Below are positions 15 to 42,441 of a DNA stretch of 64,000 nt, piece by piece; position 1 is the stretch's first letter; every line of letters begins with the position of its first letter. Origin of the DNA: Clostridia bacterium (lineage in GTDB: Bacteria > Bacillota > Clostridia > Christensenellales > UBA1242); contig JAFVEA010000009.1 in the NCBI GenBank assembly GCA_017478185.1, positions 261,264-325,263 on the forward strand. The letters are read 5' to 3'. Under the pieces are notes generated by a model. The model saw nothing but the letters and a program-made list of their open reading frames with translations, searched no databases and was not told the origin of the DNA. The position numbers and the translations under genes were made by a program.

Positions 15-215
15 TTATTTTTCCTCCTCGGTAAAAAGTTTATATAATTCATCCATATTTATATAATAATCGTTTTTAATGCGAACATTTGTTAAAATAC
101 CAGCTCTTAAAAGATGATACATTTGTAAAGAACTAAAATAACTATTTATTCTTTTATTTATTCTTTTAATTTCTTTTACAGCATCTTTTAATTTTTTAAA
201 TCTAGGTATATACAT
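15..215 (-). CDS. small basic protein downstream of integrase, possible HTH_17/excisionase-like DNA binder
   Basis: 66-aa ORF abutting the integrase stop. The segment LLRAGILTNVRIKNDYYINMDELYKLF resembles MerR/excisionase-type HTH. No stronger signature. Confidence 0.4.
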   Translation of the reverse strand: MYIPRFKKLKDAVKEIKRINKRINSYFSSLQMYHLLRAGILTNVRIKNDYYINMDELYKLFTEEEK

Positions 216-1598
216 TTATATATTCTCCTTTATTATATTGTTGAGTGCGTTTACAGCCTGTGTTTGTGTTTCTGGCATAAAGTGGCTATAAACCTTAAGT
301 GTTACAGCAGAATCACTGTGTCCCATATATCTACTTACTGTTTGAATAGGAACATTTTGTGATAATAACATGCTGCAATAAGTGTGTCTAAGTCCATGGC
401 AAGTAACTAATCTTAAATTATTCTTTGATTCAAATTCTTTTAACCATTTATTTAAGTTTTTAGGGTCTATTGGTTCTCGGCAAAGATTTACACAAAGATA
501 ATATTTATCTGGTTTATTATCAAAATTATCATCCATAATTCTAAACCATTCTTTATATTCATTTAGTGCTTTTAAAAGATAATCAGGTATTGGAACATCT
601 CTAATTGAGGTTTTTGTTTTTGGGTCTTTTTCATAAACACCAACACTTGAATCATAGTATCTAGACCTTGTTACATGAATAATTTTTTTGTTGAAATCAA
701 TATCCGACCATTTTAGTCCGTGAACTTCACCATTACGGAGACCAGCAAACAACATAATTTTTATAGGAATAACTCTGTTTGGTTCAATTTCCTTTATTCT
801 ATCTAAAGCTTCTAAAAATGGATGTATTTCATCTAGTGATAGAACCTCTTTCTCGGTTATTGCCCGAAGTGTTCCGTTATTTCCTGTTGCTGTTACTTTT
901 GTATAGCAAACGGGGTTTTTATATATCCATTCAAATCTTATCGCTTCATTAAAGATTGTTCTTAAAATTCTGCGATATCCTTTGATTGTTGTTACTGAGT
1001 ACTGAAAAGTTGTTTTTAGTATTTCAAAATCTTTTTCAAAACTTAATTTATTCTTTTTACAAAAATTTAAAGCTTCAGACATACTCCAACTATTGTTTTT
1101 AACTTTTACTCTTAATGGAATATCAAAAGAGGCTTCTTTTTTAAGTTTGTATGTTGGATATCTCAATTTTCTTTCTTCGGCTGTTGTGTTTAAAAAGAGT
1201 TGAACATCACGGACTTTTATGTCTGAAATTGGTTTTTCATCCATATAGTGTTCTTGAAGAAAAATATTGAATTTTTCTATAACCGTTTTGGCTCTGGTGT
1301 AGTAATTTATGGACAAATTTCTTTTGATGCCAGCAAGCCATTCATTAGCAAGCTCATTAAAAGTTAAGACTCTTAAATTATCTTTTGCTTTTTCTTTTAA
1401 TAGTTCGTGTGTTTCTTCTTCAAATTTATAAGCTTCTTTTTCTACAAACTTTTTAAATTTTGCCTCAGTTAGCTTTTCTTCGTTGTGTATTCTTTTGCTT
1501 GTTATTTTGTGTTTTCCTGTTCTTAAATCCTTAAAGCTTACTCTAACATTTGCATACAAATTACCTTTCTTATCTTTTTCTATTGTATAGTAAGCCAA
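216..1598 (-). CDS. int: tyrosine recombinase / phage-type integrase (Tn916-Int-like)
   Basis: Catalytic signatures AGLRNGEV (Arg I), HGLRHTYCSMLL (box II H-x-x-R) and MGHSDSAVTLKVYSH (catalytic Tyr). TTG start preceded by GGAGGA. Confidence 0.9.
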   Translation of the reverse strand: MAYYTIEKDKKGNLYANVRVSFKDLRTGKHKITSKRIHNEEKLTEAKFKKFVEKEAYKFEEETHELLKEKAKDNLRVLTFNELANEWLAGIKRNLSINYYTRAKTVIEKFNIFLQEHYMDEKPISDIKVRDVQLFLNTTAEERKLRYPTYKLKKEASFDIPLRVKVKNNSWSMSEALNFCKKNKLSFEKDFEILKTTFQYSVTTIKGYRRILRTIFNEAIRFEWIYKNPVCYTKVTATGNNGTLRAITEKEVLSLDEIHPFLEALDRIKEIEPNRVIPIKIMLFAGLRNGEVHGLKWSDIDFNKKIIHVTRSRYYDSSVGVYEKDPKTKTSIRDVPIPDYLLKALNEYKEWFRIMDDNFDNKPDKYYLCVNLCREPIDPKNLNKWLKEFESKNNLRLVTCHGLRHTYCSMLLSQNVPIQTVSRYMGHSDSAVTLKVYSHFMPETQTQAVNALNNIIKENI

Positions 1599-4532: not shown

Positions 4533-6602
4533 ATGGCAATTACTGATTTTATTGTTGGTGCAGTTATTGGATTAGTTGTAGCTTTAATTGTCGTTCTCAT
4601 TCTTCAAAACACAGTGTTAAAAGGAAAAAACATGGCTCTTTTGTATGCTATTATGTTTATTCTTTTTGCTGTTGCTGGTGGATTTATTCAGAAATCAACT
4701 TTTTCAAAAGTTGAAGCTGCTGGTTATACGCCAACGCCTCAGGAGCAAATAAAAGATGTTACTGATGCTATTGGTGATAACTGGAAAAACACAAATGGTG
4801 GTTTTACTTTTGAACAAATTCAAAAAGCTCAAGAAGATAGTGAAGCGCCTTTTCATGATGACCAAATAATTAATCTTACTTGTTATGATTTTGGTTCATA
4901 TATTGTCTTTGGTTTTAAAGATGGTAGTAAATACCAAAATATGCTTTTCTATAAATCTAATGATGGGCTAATTTTGGATGGAATAATTAACAAACATATT
5001 GCGATACCAGGTGTGAAATGGTTTTTGGCTTATGATTTAAACACTTTTAAGTGGATTGACCATCAAGACCATGAACCAACTTACGAAAAAAATCACCACT
5101 GGCTTTGGGGTGATTATGACACACTTTGTTCAATGTCTAGAAGCATTCCACAATTCCTAGAATATAGTGGTTATGCACTAACAAACAAAGATGAAACATT
5201 TAAGTATTGCTTTAAAAACATTGCTAATCTTACAGGTAAAAATGCAACTTCATATTTTATTAAGTTTGGAGATGTTGAGTTAATTGGAACGAATGCAACT
5301 GGATATACAAAAATAAATGGTTTTTACAACTATTTATATGAACAAATCAAAGGTGAGCAATATAACACAACAAAACTTATTGATGGTTCGCAATGTTTGT
5401 GTTTGCCAATTCCACAGGACTTACAAAGGAATTATCCAATAAGTCCAAGTAAGAAAGCTGAATATGGTAACAAAGATTATTATGGTGTTTATCGACTAAA
5501 CATTGCAGTTAATCTTAGTTTCAAACAGGGTAGTAATTCACTTACTTCAACTGTTAAGAATGAAGAATATGTTAACACTTTAAAGAACGATAGAAATTAT
5601 CAAGAACAAGTTGCTGTTGAAAAAATAACACCAGCAACAATATATTCAAAGCTAGATCTATCTTTTGTGGATGAAAGACAAAGTGATTTATCACAAGTTG
5701 ATTTACTACAAAATCCAGTTAAAATCACATTCACTTGCTCAGATAGCAGTCAAACAAAGGTTGTATTGATTGATAATATTGCAAAACTTAATAGTGGACT
5801 TACACTTTTATTATCTAAAAATGTTACATGGAATTATTTGATTGAAAGTGAAAAGCTGATTTTTGATAATTTCAGAGGCTCATTTACGATAAAAAGTGAT
5901 GTAACTAATATGTCTATGTCTTATTATTATCTAAACAATTATACTATTGCATCTGTTGGGTTAAATCCAGTAGGCACAATAGACACAAGTGAGATTGATT
6001 TACTCAATAATCCAGTAAAGATTATTCTTTCAAATGATGACCACACTTATCAATTTAGTTTTGATAGTAACAGTGATTTGAATGTATATAAGAATTTGCT
6101 TGTTGAAATGGGAACATATAACTACACAATTCTTTCTAAACAACTAATTTTTGCAAGTGTTACTGGAACTCTTACAATCACAACAACAGATAAAGTAATG
6201 CTCTTTAATTATACACTTGGAGTTAAAGAAGCATTAAGTTTTAATGTTTCACTATATAAATACAGCACAACAAACAATCAATTCTATTTGTATAGTGATG
6301 CATCAAATGTAACTCTTATTAGAGATACATTATCAAGTGCAAAAATTTATGTTGTAAACTGTGTTATTTACGATAATGATGGTCGTATTATGGAGAACTT
6401 TAATCATACTCATCAAAGTACTGGAACTTGTTCTGCTAGTTGGAATGCGAGTCATTTAGTTGCTGGGCAAACATATACTCTTCAACTTAGATTCACAGAC
6501 CAAAACGATTCTACGAAAACATATTTATCTGATATAACAACATTTACATTTCAAAACAATTACGGGTATAGGGTAACTTATACTGCAACAAGAAATAATT
6601 AA
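4533..6602 (+). CDS. large membrane-anchored protein (two N-terminal hydrophobic helices, beta-rich ectodomain); candidate adsorption/minor coat protein
   Basis: 689 aa. The N-terminus is MAITDFIVGAVIGLVVALIVVLILQ followed by MALLYAIMFILFAVAGGFI. No recognisable catalytic motif. Confidence 0.6.
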   Translation: MAITDFIVGAVIGLVVALIVVLILQNTVLKGKNMALLYAIMFILFAVAGGFIQKSTFSKVEAAGYTPTPQEQIKDVTDAIGDNWKNTNGGFTFEQIQKAQEDSEAPFHDDQIINLTCYDFGSYIVFGFKDGSKYQNMLFYKSNDGLILDGIINKHIAIPGVKWFLAYDLNTFKWIDHQDHEPTYEKNHHWLWGDYDTLCSMSRSIPQFLEYSGYALTNKDETFKYCFKNIANLTGKNATSYFIKFGDVELIGTNATGYTKINGFYNYLYEQIKGEQYNTTKLIDGSQCLCLPIPQDLQRNYPISPSKKAEYGNKDYYGVYRLNIAVNLSFKQGSNSLTSTVKNEEYVNTLKNDRNYQEQVAVEKITPATIYSKLDLSFVDERQSDLSQVDLLQNPVKITFTCSDSSQTKVVLIDNIAKLNSGLTLLLSKNVTWNYLIESEKLIFDNFRGSFTIKSDVTNMSMSYYYLNNYTIASVGLNPVGTIDTSEIDLLNNPVKIILSNDDHTYQFSFDSNSDLNVYKNLLVEMGTYNYTILSKQLIFASVTGTLTITTTDKVMLFNYTLGVKEALSFNVSLYKYSTTNNQFYLYSDASNVTLIRDTLSSAKIYVVNCVIYDNDGRIMENFNHTHQSTGTCSASWNASHLVAGQTYTLQLRFTDQNDSTKTYLSDITTFTFQNNYGYRVTYTATRNN

Positions 6603-6616
6603 AAGGAGAAAAATAA

Positions 6617-7825
6617 ATGGATACAGTTAAAAATGTATTTTTAAGTATTGGATGTGTGGCTTTTGCTTTTGTTGTAGCTCTTTGTGTTTTAATGTGTGTT
6701 CCTTCAACAAGAACTGGGATATACAGAATGCTTAATGTTGCATCAATAGGTGAGCAAACACAAATTGCAGATGAAAAAACAGAGCTTTACATTCAAACAC
6801 AAACATATAGAGTTCAGCTTGAAAGTTTGAATCAAGAAAAATCAAGAATTGAACGGGAGCTTGAACGTTTGCAAGAAGATTATGATGAAGGTGTTGCTAT
6901 GCTTGCTGAATATCAAACAACAATAACAAATCTTAATCAGGAGCTTGCAGATGCAAACAATGATAACAATAACTTGCAAAATCAAATTGTAGGGCTTAAT
7001 GTTAGTATTCAAAATCTAAACAACCAAATTGATGGTTATGTTTCACAAATTGATACACTTAACAATGACCTTAATGATTTAAATGTTCAATATGATTCTT
7101 TATATTCTCAATTAGAGTTTATAACTCAACAAAAAGAGGATTTAATTAGTCAAAATACTATTCTTTCAAATGAGGTTTCTCATTTAAATAATCATATTGT
7201 TGGTTTAAATAATTCAATTTTTGACCTTGAGAATAGAATTCAAACTCAAAATGATAGAATTATGTCTTTAGAGGACACAATTTCAGTACTCAATATGGAG
7301 ATTCAAGACTTGAATGAACAACTTTGGCAATATCAAAGTGAACCATTAGTTATAACAAGACATGATGAATTTAATGTTTTGTGTGCAAGTCGTGTTGAAA
7401 ATGAATTACCTTGTTGGGATGCTGCTAATTCTTTTGATGTTGAGGATGAGTTCGTTAGAACTGGTTATCAAATCAAAAATGAATGGCTTAGTAAATATTC
7501 TTTATTAAATGAGAGCATTCAACACAGTTTTGAGCTTGGTTATAATCCTATTTTGCAATATTATGTGTCTGTTGTCGCAAGCTCAGGAAATTACAAAGCA
7601 GACGAGGATGTTTTCGTTCTTGAAAGAAGATTTGAACCAGAATACACATTCTCTGTTGATGGAGCAATCGATGATGAGGTTATGAGTATTGAAGATTTCG
7701 AAAATGCTTTAGTAGATGATTGCAATTATTTATTTACTGTTGAAATTGCAAATAGTTGGAATTATGAAACAGGTAGAGTGGCTAATTTGAGTGTTCATGT
7801 TAGGGTTTATACAGAGTGGCAATAA
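6617..7825 (+). CDS. N-terminally anchored coiled-coil protein
   Basis: 402 aa. TM segment VFLSIGCVAFAFVVALCVLMCV, then about 200 aa of N/Q/L/E heptad-like sequence and a globular C-terminus. Confidence 0.6.
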   Translation: MDTVKNVFLSIGCVAFAFVVALCVLMCVPSTRTGIYRMLNVASIGEQTQIADEKTELYIQTQTYRVQLESLNQEKSRIERELERLQEDYDEGVAMLAEYQTTITNLNQELADANNDNNNLQNQIVGLNVSIQNLNNQIDGYVSQIDTLNNDLNDLNVQYDSLYSQLEFITQQKEDLISQNTILSNEVSHLNNHIVGLNNSIFDLENRIQTQNDRIMSLEDTISVLNMEIQDLNEQLWQYQSEPLVITRHDEFNVLCASRVENELPCWDAANSFDVEDEFVRTGYQIKNEWLSKYSLLNESIQHSFELGYNPILQYYVSVVASSGNYKADEDVFVLERRFEPEYTFSVDGAIDDEVMSIEDFENALVDDCNYLFTVEIANSWNYETGRVANLSVHVRVYTEWQ

Positions 7826-8649
7826 CTATAATATTTGCACCACCAAGAACTGGTAAAACTTCATTTATGTCTTATTTGCTTAATTGTTATGCTTTTGATA
7901 AAGAAAGAAACAAGAGTATGCGTCAGGAAATTCAGCAGAAAAATCAAAATGGTTTTAAGCTTAGCATTCCAAAGCACTGTGTTTCTGCGAATTATAATTT
8001 AACTTTTTCAAAATTTGGTTATAGTAAAAGGCATAACAGATTGATAAATCCATTTAAGTTGGGTTTTAAGAATGATTTTGTGAAAACTCATTTTAATTAC
8101 CCATATGAAGTTATTGGAATTACTGAAGCCCAAAAATACTTAAATAGTAGAATGGCCATGTATTTTCCAGAGTGGCAGTCCAGGTGGTATGAACAACATG
8201 GACATAATCATTTAGAGATTTTATTAGACACTCAAAGACCGAATTTAATTGATGTGAATATTCGAGAAATTTCACAATTTATTGAAATACTTAACTTAAA
8301 AATATGTTATAACAAGTTTGGAAAGATTAGTAAAATGAAATGGACTATTAGGAAAATTGATAATTCAAGTCTATTTGAGAAATATATGTCTAGTGGCAAG
8401 AAAGATAAAAGTTGTTATAAACAAGAAACTGTTGTTGCTCATTTTGATGTTTTCTCAATTTACTCAAGTGAATGTTGTAAACCAAAGTTTTATGACGGAC
8501 ATTTTGAAGAAGATTTTGATATTCAAGAAAGCAAAACAACAGAAGAAAGCTTTTTAGGGTTTGTTAAATTCTTAGATGAGTTCGATGATGAAATGCCGGA
8601 AGGATTTTATCAGCCTAAAACTGTAAAGAAGAAGAAAGATGAACTATAA
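7816..8649 (+). CDS. Zot-like (filamentous-phage pI-type) P-loop NTPase
   Basis: Walker A APPRTGKTS, Walker-B-like VIGITEAQ, and the Zot-family block HGHNHLEILLDTQRPNLIDVNIRE (compare HRH-G-D-TQ). Overlaps the upstream stop. No TM helix seen. Confidence 0.7.
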   Translation: MAITIIFAPPRTGKTSFMSYLLNCYAFDKERNKSMRQEIQQKNQNGFKLSIPKHCVSANYNLTFSKFGYSKRHNRLINPFKLGFKNDFVKTHFNYPYEVIGITEAQKYLNSRMAMYFPEWQSRWYEQHGHNHLEILLDTQRPNLIDVNIREISQFIEILNLKICYNKFGKISKMKWTIRKIDNSSLFEKYMSSGKKDKSCYKQETVVAHFDVFSIYSSECCKPKFYDGHFEEDFDIQESKTTEESFLGFVKFLDEFDDEMPEGFYQPKTVKKKKDEL

Positions 8650-8938
8650 CAAGAATAAACTTATCAACATAACCCTAGACAAGTATTATGAAACTTTTTC
8701 ACACACACTAGATACATATGATTTTGTACCAGAAAAGTACAATACAAAAGTATGTAAATATATTTTTAAGAATATGAAAAAATCCTTTAAGAAGATTGAT
8801 AAGGAAGATAGGATTTATCAGCGAATGCTTAAGCGTAAAGAAAAAGAAAAGCAAAAAGCATTAAAGCCAAAGCAAAGTTTCTTCCAAAGATTATTTAAAA
8901 GAAATAATCAAACAAATTCTAATTTAAAGGAGGATTAA
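8639..8938 (+). CDS. hypothetical basic protein
   Basis: 99-aa ORF overlapping the Zot-like stop. Lys-rich C-terminus. Confidence 0.5.
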   Translation: MNYNKNKLINITLDKYYETFSHTLDTYDFVPEKYNTKVCKYIFKNMKKSFKKIDKEDRIYQRMLKRKEKEKQKALKPKQSFFQRLFKRNNQTNSNLKED

Positions 8939-8939
8939 A

Positions 8940-22198: not shown

Positions 22199-23014
22199 TT
22201 ATAATATTTTTAAGTTATTGTCTAATAGTTTTTGAAGAATATCTATTTTTGTATTTTCAAGTTCAGTTTTTCTTTTTTCATAAATAGTTTCATTGTTATC
22301 TTCAAGGACAAGAAGGGTAGATTGTTTTTGAAGTGTTTCAAAATATTTGTCTTTAAGATGAATAGGGAAGCCAGCAAGTTTCACTGGTTCAACAAAGCCA
22401 AAGTCTTTTGATGTTAAAACAAGATTTAGTATGCTTGAAATCTTTTCAGCATTGTTATCATAAGCTTCATAAAAATCTCCAAGTTTAATAAGAGTTATTT
22501 TATCTGAGTTTTCATCTTGTGTTTTGGCATATAATTTGTAATAATCTGGAATTTTTTCTTCAGCTTGTTTTAGTTCTTCATTTATTTTTGGCTTATCTAA
22601 GTCCATGAAATCAAAAAGTGTTTGTTGAGGTGTTTGTTTTTTAACTTCAACTTTAGGTTCAATCTTTGGAGCAACCTTTGGTTTTGGCTTTTCTTCTTCG
22701 TAGATACTGCCATCAAGATTATAAAGTGTTCCAATAATCGAATCTTCTTCAAAGTAGTGTATCGCCCAACCAAAAACAGTTGAATCTTCTATGCAAGCAT
22801 AACTTGCTCCTTTTTCTGCAAGTTTCTTAGCTTCATTATTTGCATATTGGAAAAATCCAGTTAAATTTTTCTTATTAACAAGTTCTTTTTTGTTTTTTGT
22901 GGTTTTCACACCCAAATTTATCTTATTTGCAAGATTTTCACTAGCATTTTTTTGCAAATAATCTTTTATTATTTCTTGTTCTTTGTTTTTTGTTTCCAAA
23001 TTTAATTCAATCAT
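22199..23014 (-). CDS. PcfK-like (AcrIIA9-family) N-domain fused to a MutS domain-I-like C-domain
   Basis: N-terminal IIKDYLQKNA...STVFGWAIHYFEEDSI resembles PcfK/AcrIIA9. C-terminal ITLIKLGDFYEAYDNNAEKISSILNLVLTSKD...LAGFPIHLKDKYFETLQKQSTLLVLED aligns with the E. coli MutS mismatch-binding domain (GDFYE ... MAGIPYHAVENYL). Confidence 0.55.
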   Translation of the reverse strand: MIELNLETKNKEQEIIKDYLQKNASENLANKINLGVKTTKNKKELVNKKNLTGFFQYANNEAKKLAEKGASYACIEDSTVFGWAIHYFEEDSIIGTLYNLDGSIYEEEKPKPKVAPKIEPKVEVKKQTPQQTLFDFMDLDKPKINEELKQAEEKIPDYYKLYAKTQDENSDKITLIKLGDFYEAYDNNAEKISSILNLVLTSKDFGFVEPVKLAGFPIHLKDKYFETLQKQSTLLVLEDNNETIYEKRKTELENTKIDILQKLLDNNLKIL

Positions 23015-26986: not shown

Positions 26987-27018
26987 AAAAGCCCACCTGA
27001 AATAGGTGAGCTTTTTAT
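26987..27018 (+). terminator. Rho-independent terminator
   Basis: GCCCACCT-N5-AGGTGAGC followed by TTTTT. Confidence 0.55.
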
Positions 27019-27020
27019 TT

Positions 27021-27096
27021 TGGAGCTAGCGATCGGACTTGAACCGACGACCTCCTCGTTACCAACGAGGTGCACTACCGACTGTGCTACGCTAGC
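27021..27096 (-). tRNA. tRNA-Thr (anticodon GGT), CCA encoded
   Basis: Manual cloverleaf: GCTAGCG/CGCTAGC acceptor, anticodon arm CCTCG-TTGGTAA-CGAGG, T-arm GTCGG-TTCAAGT-CCGAT. Confidence 0.85.
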
Positions 27097-27180
27097 ATAT
27101 TTTATTAAAAATAGGGTATGGATTTTAGTAAATTTTAACTTTCATTTTGTTGAATAATTTTTGTCTCTTTCAATAAATTT

Positions 27181-27212
27181 TTGTACTTTTTTGTACTTTT
27201 TTTTGTACTTTC
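27181..27212. repeat. three direct TTGTACTTT(T/C) repeats
   Basis: Copies at 27181, 27191 and 27203, between the intact tRNA-Thr and the truncated copies. Confidence 0.6.
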
Positions 27213-27304
27213 TCAAAAATGGCCTTTTTGGGCATTCTTTGGAAGTGCCTTAAAATAAGGCTTTTTTCATGCGCCGCGTTAAATTATTTTCATTTGCGAT
27301 CTTC

Positions 27305-27500
27305 CTTACCAAGGTGGTGCTCTACCCCTGAGCCACAGTAGCATACGATAAAAATATTAAATTGTGAAAGTTAGACCTAGTGGCTTACCAAGGTGGTGCT
27401 CTACCCCTGAGCCACAGTAGCATACGATAAAAATATTAAGTTGTGAAAGTTAGACCTAATGGCTTACCAAGGTGGTGCTCTACCCCTGAGCCACAGTAGC
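27305..27500 (-). repeat. three tandem 79-bp units, each containing the 5' ~38 nt of a second tRNA-Thr(GGT)-type gene truncated in the anticodon loop
   Basis: The reverse complement is GCTACTGTGGCTCAGGGGTAGAGCACCACCTTGGTAAG at 27342-27305, 27421-27384 and 27500-27463. No matching 3' half follows any copy. Confidence 0.8.
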
Positions 27501-27805
27501 ATAATAAATTATAAATTTATATTTTTATCTTAGGTCGCTTTTATATGATAATATAAAAGAATAAAAAAGTCAATTATATTTTAATTATTTAATACTTTTG
27601 AATTAATAAGTGTGAAAATTTGCGAAAAATTTTAAAAAGTTTTTATAAATAAAATACTTTTTAGTTGATATATTTCTTGTTTTTTTAATATAATCCTTCT
27701 AATGCGACTAAAAGTATGATTATGGATGTTAAAATTATATAAAACATAAAGAGATAAGTCAAGAGAAAGAAAAAAGGGCAGCGATTGCCCTTTTTTGCAT
27801 GGTCT

Positions 27806-41635: not shown

Positions 41636-41711
41636 TGGTGACCCACGCGCGGATCGAACGCGCGACAACTTGATTAAAAGTCAAGTGCTCTACCTACTGA
41701 GCTAGTGGGTC
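41636..41711 (-). tRNA. tRNA-Lys (anticodon TTT)
   Basis: Anticodon arm CTTGA-CTTTTAA-TCAAG, CCA encoded. Confidence 0.85.
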
Positions 41712-41770
41712 ATATGGCGTTTGGAAATTTTTCCATAACGCATTTAATTAATCTTTTTTATAAAAGATGT

Positions 41771-41845
41771 TGGCAGGGGTGGCTGGATTTGAACCAACGC
41801 ATGCAAGAGTCAAAGTCTTGTGCCTTACCGCTTGGCTACACCCCT
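41771..41845 (-). tRNA. tRNA-Gln (anticodon TTG)
   Basis: Anticodon arm CAAGA-CTTTGAC-TCTTG, CCA encoded. Confidence 0.85.
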
Positions 41846-42001
41846 AAGATGAAGCACAGTTTAAAGACTTGAGTTCGTGGTCTCTTGCAATGCGTTAGTG
41901 CATGCAAGGAATCTTTTTTTGCTACGCTCAAAAAGATGTAAATTTTTTGATTAGTCAACCAAATCTGCGAGCGCATTTGTTTCCTAATCTCTAAATTTGG
42001 G

Positions 42002-42037
42002 CAAAGTCTTGTGCTTATGCCGCTTGGCTACACCCCT
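42002..42037 (-). pseudogene. truncated 5' half of tRNA-Gln(TTG)
   Basis: CAAAGTCTTGTGCTTATGCCGCTTGGCTACACCCCT versus CAAAGTCTTGTGCCTTACCGCTTGGCTACACCCCT in the intact gene. Similarity starts in the anticodon loop. Confidence 0.7.
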
Positions 42038-42074
42038 AAATCAGTATAGTTTTCAGACTTTACTGTCGGTCATA

Positions 42075-42149
42075 TGGCAGGGGTGGAAGGATTTGAACCC
42101 TCGAATGCTTGAGTCAGAGTCAAGTGCCTTACCGCTTGGCGACGCCCCT
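42075..42149 (-). tRNA. tRNA-Gln (anticodon CTG)
   Basis: Anticodon arm CTTGA-CTCTGAC-TCAAG. Confidence 0.85.
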
Positions 42150-42153
42150 TTGG

Positions 42154-42230
42154 TGGGGTGAAAGGTGGGACTCGAACCCACGACCTCCTGGGCCACAACC
42201 AGGCGCTCTACCAGCTAAGCTACATCCACC
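42154..42230 (-). tRNA. tRNA-His (anticodon GTG) with encoded G-1
   Basis: Anticodon arm CCTGG-TTGTGGC-CCAGG. An extra 5' G pairs with discriminator C. Confidence 0.85.
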
Positions 42231-42251
42231 ATAAGTGGGGCCTACCCCTAT

Positions 42252-42328
42252 TGGTGCGCCTGGAGGGACTCGAACCCCCGACCTACGCCTTAGAAGGGCG
42301 TTGCTCTATCCAGTTGAGCTACAGGCGC
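42252..42328 (-). tRNA. tRNA-Arg (anticodon TCT)
   Basis: Anticodon arm ACGCC-CTTCTAA-GGCGT. Confidence 0.85.
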
Positions 42329-42367
42329 AAATGTGGGAGATTGATTTTTCTATATTCTGCAATATAG

Positions 42368-42441
<74 letters not shown>

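Follow-up and report, generated by a model that had tools for sequence, protein, structure and literature searches.

A 64,000-nucleotide stretch of DNA from a Clostridia bacterium (the window) carries an intact tRNA-Thr(GGU) gene beside three tandem 5' halves of a different one, the GCTACTG-type. We consider it very probable that a mobile element integrated in the anticodon loop of the GCTACTG-type gene, bringing its own replacement tRNA, and that the halves are leftovers of serial integration at this locus. The locus displays both junctions of the element, a short core, a cognate tRNA, an integrase and end repeats; the same architecture recurs in many relatives.

The array is constituted by the 38-mer GCTACTGTGGCTCAGGGGTAGAGCACCACCTTGGTAAG, read on the minus strand, which occurs exactly three times against zero occurrences expected by chance (100 shuffles): half A at 27463-27500 (positions 1-39 of the GCTACTG-type tRNA-Thr(GGU)), half B at 27384-27421 and half C at 27305-27342. 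TRF describes the array as 2.5 copies of period 79 with 98% matches. Each half comprises the 5' strand of the acceptor stem, the D arm, the 5' strand of the anticodon stem, the 7-nt loop TTGGTAA and one further G; neither GGTGG nor a T arm follows any of the three. Half A, whose 3' end is likewise the loop plus G, is nearest to the resident promoter. The sequence upstream of it is unique chromosomal DNA, also present in Logan contigs L005 and L006, and includes a promoter-like site, TTGACT-17-TATCAT (27545-27573, minus strand; 10 of 12 matches). Half C, with the core TTGGTAA(G) at 27305-27312, is where the chromosome joins the resident 30.5-kb element. Beyond it, 208 nt unlike the spacers of the array (27097-27304) lead to the intact, element-borne gene (27021-27096, minus strand; acceptor stem GCTAGCG), on which ARAGORN and Rfam (tRNA model, 70.6 bits) agree. 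Both the tandem halves cut at the anticodon loop and the complete gene of a different type 208 nt further on had been recognized in a preliminary description of this DNA, and both stand. The D arm and variable loop of the intact tRNA are similar to those of the element-borne tRNAs of two related loci (L018 and L024), and ARAGORN detects no second tRNA-Thr in the 64-kb window. Just beyond its 3' end, inspection of the sequence reveals a hairpin (26994-27008), probably a two-way terminator. Elsewhere in the window, six tRNA genes (Lys, Gln, Gln, His, Arg and Gly) lie on the minus strand at 41636-42441, and no fragments were noticed among them.

The cognate 3' half of the cut tRNA lies outside the window. 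It was located in L001, the same contig reaching 9.8 kb further left, at 14834-14878 (window -3279 to -3235). Oriented like the 5' halves, it has the sequence TTGGTAA-GGTGGGGGTCATGGTTCCGATTCCCATCAGTAGCTCCA, with a terminator after it. It lies 3.3 kb beyond the integrase gene, some 3.24 kb to the left of the first window position. It first surfaced as a weak match among thousands of short BLAST hits, and visual inspection and a BLAST search with the predicted 3' half then bore it out; ARAGORN and Rfam call no tRNA in the left extension. When half C and this 3' half are joined, ARAGORN recovers a 75-nt tRNA-Thr(GGT). The 3' half agrees at 37 of 38 positions with the intact tRNA of the related loci L012 and L016, the sole difference being G53T in the T stem, and about 65 nt downstream of it are homologous to the corresponding flank in these loci. 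The T in place of the conserved G53 (L001 14841-14878) is seen in three independent assemblies (L001, L002 and L003). The preliminary description had thus correctly anticipated insertion into the anticodon loop of an original tRNA-Thr and a missing 3' half left of the window near int with the order GGTGG...T arm...CAGTAGC-N-CCA, where N is T here; the uninterrupted version of the gene that it proposed to seek in related genomes is present in L012 and L016.

The two junctions read CCACC|TTGGTAAG|GAAGATCG and AAGTCGGA|TTGGTAAG|GTGG, half C running into GAAGATCG and the 3' half being preceded by AAGTCGGA. They have in common the core alone, TTGGTAA(G), an 8-bp sequence whose two copies are 30,547 bp apart; hence, the tRNA is not rebuilt, and neither ARAGORN nor Rfam calls a tRNA at either junction. 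The junction between half C and the element is also present in a Logan contig from another run (L041). The island had been thought to start immediately past the intact tRNA, at its 3' end; its actual start is the loop junction in half C at 27304/27305, and consequently both the 208-nt leader and the intact tRNA fall inside the element. The idea that the element had brought a replacement tRNA-Thr is borne out by this position of the tRNA-Thr(GGT) within the element boundaries.

The leader (27097-27304, minus strand) corresponds to the P' arm side of attP and contains three TTTTGTAC repeats at 27179-27211 (plus-strand reading). The motif TTTTGTA[CG] occurs 10 times on the plus strand of the 74-kb extended sequence, with one cluster of four 120-200 bp inside the left end of the element and, at the right end, another of three some 100-125 bp inward. 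The repeat sequence is TTTTGTAC at one end and the similar, but not identical, TTTTGTAGA at the other, and we read these clusters as putative arm-type integrase sites. Within 6.5 kb beyond the element there is just the one 3' half, from which it is assumed that earlier element bodies were deleted along with their 3' halves. An isolated 10-nt CCTTGGTAAG at L001:16832-16841, intergenic, 2 kb beyond the 3' half and with no tRNA-like flanks, is probably a chance match; it may alternatively mark a very old junction. Exact-protein look-ups with flanking genes yielded no empty-site strain, returning only the same three or four ruminant samples, and those with a readable junction carry the element or break at the repeat. 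No excised circle of the element was seen either, and the Logan contigs of further ruminant runs are too fragmentary to reach past the half.

The element body takes up window positions 1-27304 and continues leftwards beyond the window for 3,241 bp, as far as the second copy of the core. Its tyrosine integrase (216-1598, minus strand) displays a Phage_integrase domain (PF00589, 1.6e-23) together with N-terminal SAM-like domains. Directly downstream of it is an ORF of 66 aa (15-215, minus strand) with no Pfam match, possibly an excisionase on the strength of its position. The integrase gene is 3.5 kb from the attachment region. It and the replacement tRNA are encoded on one strand and are not convergent, unlike the corresponding pairs in six related loci. 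The rest of the element shows several distinct gene groups. A plus-strand run at 4533-9959 codes for a 689-aa protein of unknown affinities, a 402-aa coiled-coil protein, a Zot-like ATPase (phrog_197, 3.7e-07) and a REP_ORF2-G2P rolling-circle initiator (2.9e-10); these genes may constitute an inovirus-like module of the island. A defence cluster at 10257-15087 combines AbiTii (4.9e-24) with a type III methyltransferase (4.5e-127, PADLOC) and a type III restriction helicase subunit. The element also holds PcfJ/PcfK and other genes: beside PcfJ, the ORF at 22199-23014 shows an unusual fusion of a PcfK-like region to MutS domain I (1.8e-12). Searches for capsid, tail and terminase genes in the element gave no matches, and scans of IMG/VR with the replacement tRNA and the cut halves gave zero.

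The two spacers that separate the halves offer a view of an earlier state of the locus. Spacer 1 (27422-27462, minus strand) is the 41-nt sequence CCATTAGGTCTAACTTTCACAACTTAATATTTTTATCGTAT, and spacer 2 (27343-27383, minus strand) is the same sequence with two substitutions, such that 39 of 41 positions are identical; by comparison with relatives, each spacer has a private substitution. In three related genomes (L008, L012 and L016) this 41-nt sequence is found directly 5' of an intact GCTACTG-type tRNA, with 0-2 differences. Upstream of the leader, each of these three has in turn an older 5' half ending in TTGGTAAG, the half differing among them, and in L016 a still older, decayed leader precedes the older half. 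The 41 nt, previously described as the upstream part of a 79-bp unit, are better understood as the leader that accompanies the GCTACTG-type tRNA. This conservation in three relatives suggests that the GCTACTG-type tRNA is itself an earlier replacement gene, and it likely arrived together with its 41-nt leader. The location of a GCTACTG-type tRNA 55 nt from an integrase gene in L031 lends further support to such an origin.

To place the locus in a wider context, a 30-nt 5' half was used to scan 185,579 species, each represented by one genome. This recovered 33 loci, all from animal-gut Clostridia MAGs. Relics of a similar kind are seen in 16 of the 33 species-level genomes with this tRNA, often two or three deep: eight loci have a tRNA interrupted directly behind TTGGTAA, and in a further eight an older half or a chimeric relic lies upstream of an intact tRNA. 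Wherever the contig of a cut locus is long enough, a leader of 54-153 nt is followed by a different tRNA-Thr(GGT), itself cut or intact. The order half-leader-half-leader-gene is found in L017 and L023, and the stacks in L017, L018 and L023 are made up of halves of differing sequence. An element-borne tRNA-Thr(GGT) inside the boundaries is likewise present in L017, L023, L024, L035 and L042. Homologues of the window's integrase (25-29% identity) are found in six loci (L013, L020, L023, L024, L031 and L035), where the gene is convergent with the new tRNA and lies 0.05-2.3 kb past it, short repeats flanking that tRNA. None of the 33 loci shows two separate pattern matches in one genome. A scan of JGI metagenomes for the half-leader-half pattern returned nothing; the corresponding scan for cut halves returned a single contig, L042, with the same layout as the window.

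Several relatives show additional features around this tRNA. A 3' tRNA fragment lies about 150 nt past the intact gene in L008 (~1850-1960), and on the minus strand of L042 a 3' fragment of a third tRNA type lies about 300-340 nt past the new tRNA. In L014 (minus strand) a truncated chimeric anticodon arm, CCACC-TTGGTAA-GGCAG, is positioned about 165 nt upstream of the tRNA. L016 (1540-4400) has in common with the window a flank with an NTP-transferase and DUF5131, and has about 2.9 kb of extra sequence between the array and that gene. The extra sequence codes for a protein of 575 aa in which MBG and YDG domains are recognized; on the opposite side of the tRNA of L016 is the gene of a RES-domain protein.

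Taken with the junctions, these loci suggest the following course of events. The attachment site would be the GCTACTG-type tRNA-Thr(GGU) gene, whose 7-nt anticodon loop TTGGTAA is recombined by the tyrosine integrase. As the target shares with the element only the loop and one G, the gene would be destroyed on integration, leaving half C and the 3' half 30.5 kb apart. The complete tRNA-Thr(GGU) of the element, 208 nt inside the junction, co-oriented and behind the resident promoter, would then take over. In an earlier round, the GCTACTG-type tRNA with its 41-nt leader would have arrived by the same route, and each round would leave behind one unit of 5' half plus leader. As the new tRNA offers the same anticodon loop as the next target, halves would pile up between the old promoter and the working gene. 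In other stacks too, strong promoter-like sites precede the first half, and the short leaders have no obvious promoter; this points to transcription running through the halves, after which RNase P would release the new tRNA. We infer that the halves are transcribed only as leader and that the tRNA of the element would be needed for viability. The G53T change in the displaced 3' half means that precise excision would restore a damaged gene; this single substitution may be a sign that the host now depends on the element. On balance, we favour an open-ended relay, in which the tRNA of each element becomes the next target, such that an essential tRNA is repeatedly replaced across the clade while the 3' half decays and the host is locked in.

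An identical unit, such as those of the window, could be added by two routes. In the first, the same element would enter its own tRNA, and homologous recombination of the tandem bodies would leave an extra half and leader; in the second, the 38-bp repeats would recombine by unequal crossing-over. As to how two identical units became three, the data fit both, and the amplification of an att-site remnant, put forward in the preliminary description, is possible for this same step. A broader version of the second route, in which only the first half-leader unit is an integration scar and all further identical units arose by unequal crossing-over or replication slippage, is quite conceivable, though somewhat short of probable. 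In keeping with it, there is no difference among halves A, B and C (100% identity), and just two positions vary between the spacers; furthermore, the k-mer depth of the 41-nt repeat unitig relative to its flanks corresponds to about two copies in one sequencing run (2.1-2.4x in X1) and about three in another (2.7-3.2x in X2), as would be expected of an array that expands and contracts. Against it, each spacer departs from the leader of the relatives by a substitution of its own; in L016 the units are more decayed the further they lie from the working gene, in keeping with units being added one after another beside the gene; and the stacks with differing halves in L017, L018 and L023 are impossible by duplication.

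The number of units itself needs to be weighed against the assembly. Over 11.6 kb the window is identical to an ENA scaffold from a ruminant gut metagenome (ERZ28654714 scaffold_36; L004), which has a 100-N gap at 7114-7213, inside spacer 1 (approximately window 27438/27439): the window equals this scaffold minus the Ns, the two sides abutting with no overlap or loss. The Logan contigs from two other runs (L005 and L006) break at the repeat, inside half A. At 100% identity, run X1 has only spacer variant 1 and runs X2 and X3 only variant 2. That the variants T..C and C..T (27343-27462) each occur alone in separate sequencing runs suggests strain polymorphism in the array. It could therefore be proposed that the third copy is an assembly artefact, with two halves and one spacer per strain and the variants of co-existing strains chained together. 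The gap within spacer 1, the single variant per Logan run and the depth in X1 of just over two copies are all in line with such chaining. Yet, the piece of the scaffold to the right of the gap contains 17 nt of leader, half B, spacer 2 and half C; this is one half with leader on both sides, which requires at least three halves, and the depth in X2 also speaks for three. An artefact thus appears rather unlikely. The presence of at least two copies is certain, and a third is likely present in at least one strain.

A further alternative is that the 5' halves are retained because they are useful, either as tRNA-half decoys of an anticodon nuclease or as spare recombination sites. With a strong promoter-like site on one side and the working tRNA on the other, they are probably transcribed, and AbiTii and other defence genes are coded on the island. 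RNA runs contained only 4-6% of the search words. Nevertheless, the older halves in L008, L016, L034 and L014 have lost D-stem pairing or anticodon-stem bases, as neutral relics would, and the halves are devoid of the acceptor partner and T arm used by RNase P and RNase Z. We hence regard this as very improbable, and the suggestion that the halves act as decoys against anticodon nucleases, made before these relatives were compared, finds no support given the disabling changes. Only marginally better placed is the related proposal that the stack, which the resident promoter would express abundantly within the precursor, is kept or amplified because released 5' halves or extra loop sites act, as a nuclease sink or as alternative excision partners; the relay of successive replacements has much the higher odds. 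Finally, canonical integration at the 3' end of the intact tRNA-Thr, with the halves as unrelated debris, is extremely improbable, for although the coding region of the island begins directly after that 3' end, no repeat of it is present in the window or the 9.8-kb left extension, which assigns the 208-nt leader and the intact tRNA to the element, and what the far end holds is the 3' half belonging to the cut tRNA.

Genes for tRNAs in pieces are known from other contexts. In the split tRNA genes of Nanoarchaeota and some Crenarchaeota, which are the sole gene copies, the halves have complementary flanks and are joined in trans by the archaeal splicing endonuclease. The present case is comparable in that the halves are parted at the anticodon loop and encoded far apart; it differs in its bacterial host, the complete replacement gene and the lack of flank complementarity. 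An archaeal-type split tRNA was rejected on account of the intact tRNA and of GAAGATCGCAAATG showing no visible complementarity to the sequence upstream of the 3' half. A CRISPR array with 38-nt repeats and 41-nt spacers was also considered and rejected: the spacers, 39/41 identical, are a tRNA leader and the repeat is a tRNA 5' half.

In canonical islands, a tRNA fragment in attP restores the target gene, and the displaced fragment is a 3' fragment in 3,760 cases as against a 5' fragment in 159 (PMC4383910). The element described here resembles the islands of Islander class A, which have an anticodon-centred attP (Hudson, Lau and Williams 2015, PMC4383910), in its tyrosine integrase, the crossover in the anticodon loop and the occurrence of tandem arrays at one tRNA. 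Unlike in canonical islands, nothing is restored and both 5' and 3' fragments remain; as no intact target is regenerated at either junction, a canonical tRNA-restoring island was rejected.

The closest parallel is the tRNA-dependent lysogeny of the actinobacteriophages Fionnbharth, LeBron, Gaia and others (Guerrero-Bustamante and Hatfull, mBio 2024, PMC10865867). These have a tyrosine integrase, an attB in a tRNA gene with a core of 8-17 bp and no rebuilt tRNA, and the cognate phage tRNA is required for viable lysogens, a mechanism shown experimentally in mycobacteriophages. The present locus is similar in its tyrosine integrase, putative arm-type sites, attB in a tRNA, 8-bp core and tRNA that is not rebuilt; four of the six features of tRNA-dependent lysogeny are found here, namely the tyrosine integrase, attB in a tRNA, a short core and an element-borne cognate tRNA. 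There are also clear differences. The hosts there are Actinobacteria, whereas here the host is a low-GC gut Clostridia MAG; the target, tRNA-Thr(GGU), is absent from the targets that the paper lists; and the element has no tailed-phage genes, in contrast to the actinobacteriophages. In Fionnbharth the phage tRNA overlaps gene 37 and the region upstream has promoter activity (PMC10865867), whereas the replacement tRNA here has the orientation of the cut gene, is placed behind that gene's promoter and is 41-209 nt away from the core. PMC10865867 describes no natural stacks of relic 5' halves such as those seen here in many species, and we found no papers on such stacks in open-access text. The same authors speculated that a second plasmid copy may integrate into the vector-borne tRNA, and suggested that the phenomenon may exist outside Actinobacteria, citing prophage Lj965 (PMC10865867). 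In Lj965, from Lactobacillus johnsonii (Firmicutes), the tRNA is not rebuilt and a cognate tRNA is encoded, as cited in PMC10865867. It is a single case with no stacking reported in that text, and we liken it to the present element by citation, not by sequence.

The results place tRNA-dependent integration, so far shown in actinobacteriophages, in animal-gut Clostridia as well, and on an element that has no tailed-phage genes. They also offer natural evidence that an element-borne tRNA becomes the next attachment site, which in PMC10865867 was a speculation from plasmid colonies. At a practical level, tRNA annotation may miscount the halves, and short-read assemblers break or mis-scaffold at such arrays; moreover, as the intact tRNA is not cognate to the fragments, finders that seek a tRNA together with its cognate fragment would miss elements of this kind. 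The piles of 5' halves amount to a countable record of past integrations at one locus. With relics in about half of the related genomes, and a GCTACTG-type gene beside an integrase in L031, an annotated chromosomal tRNA-Thr(GGU) in these bacteria may often be derived from a mobile element.
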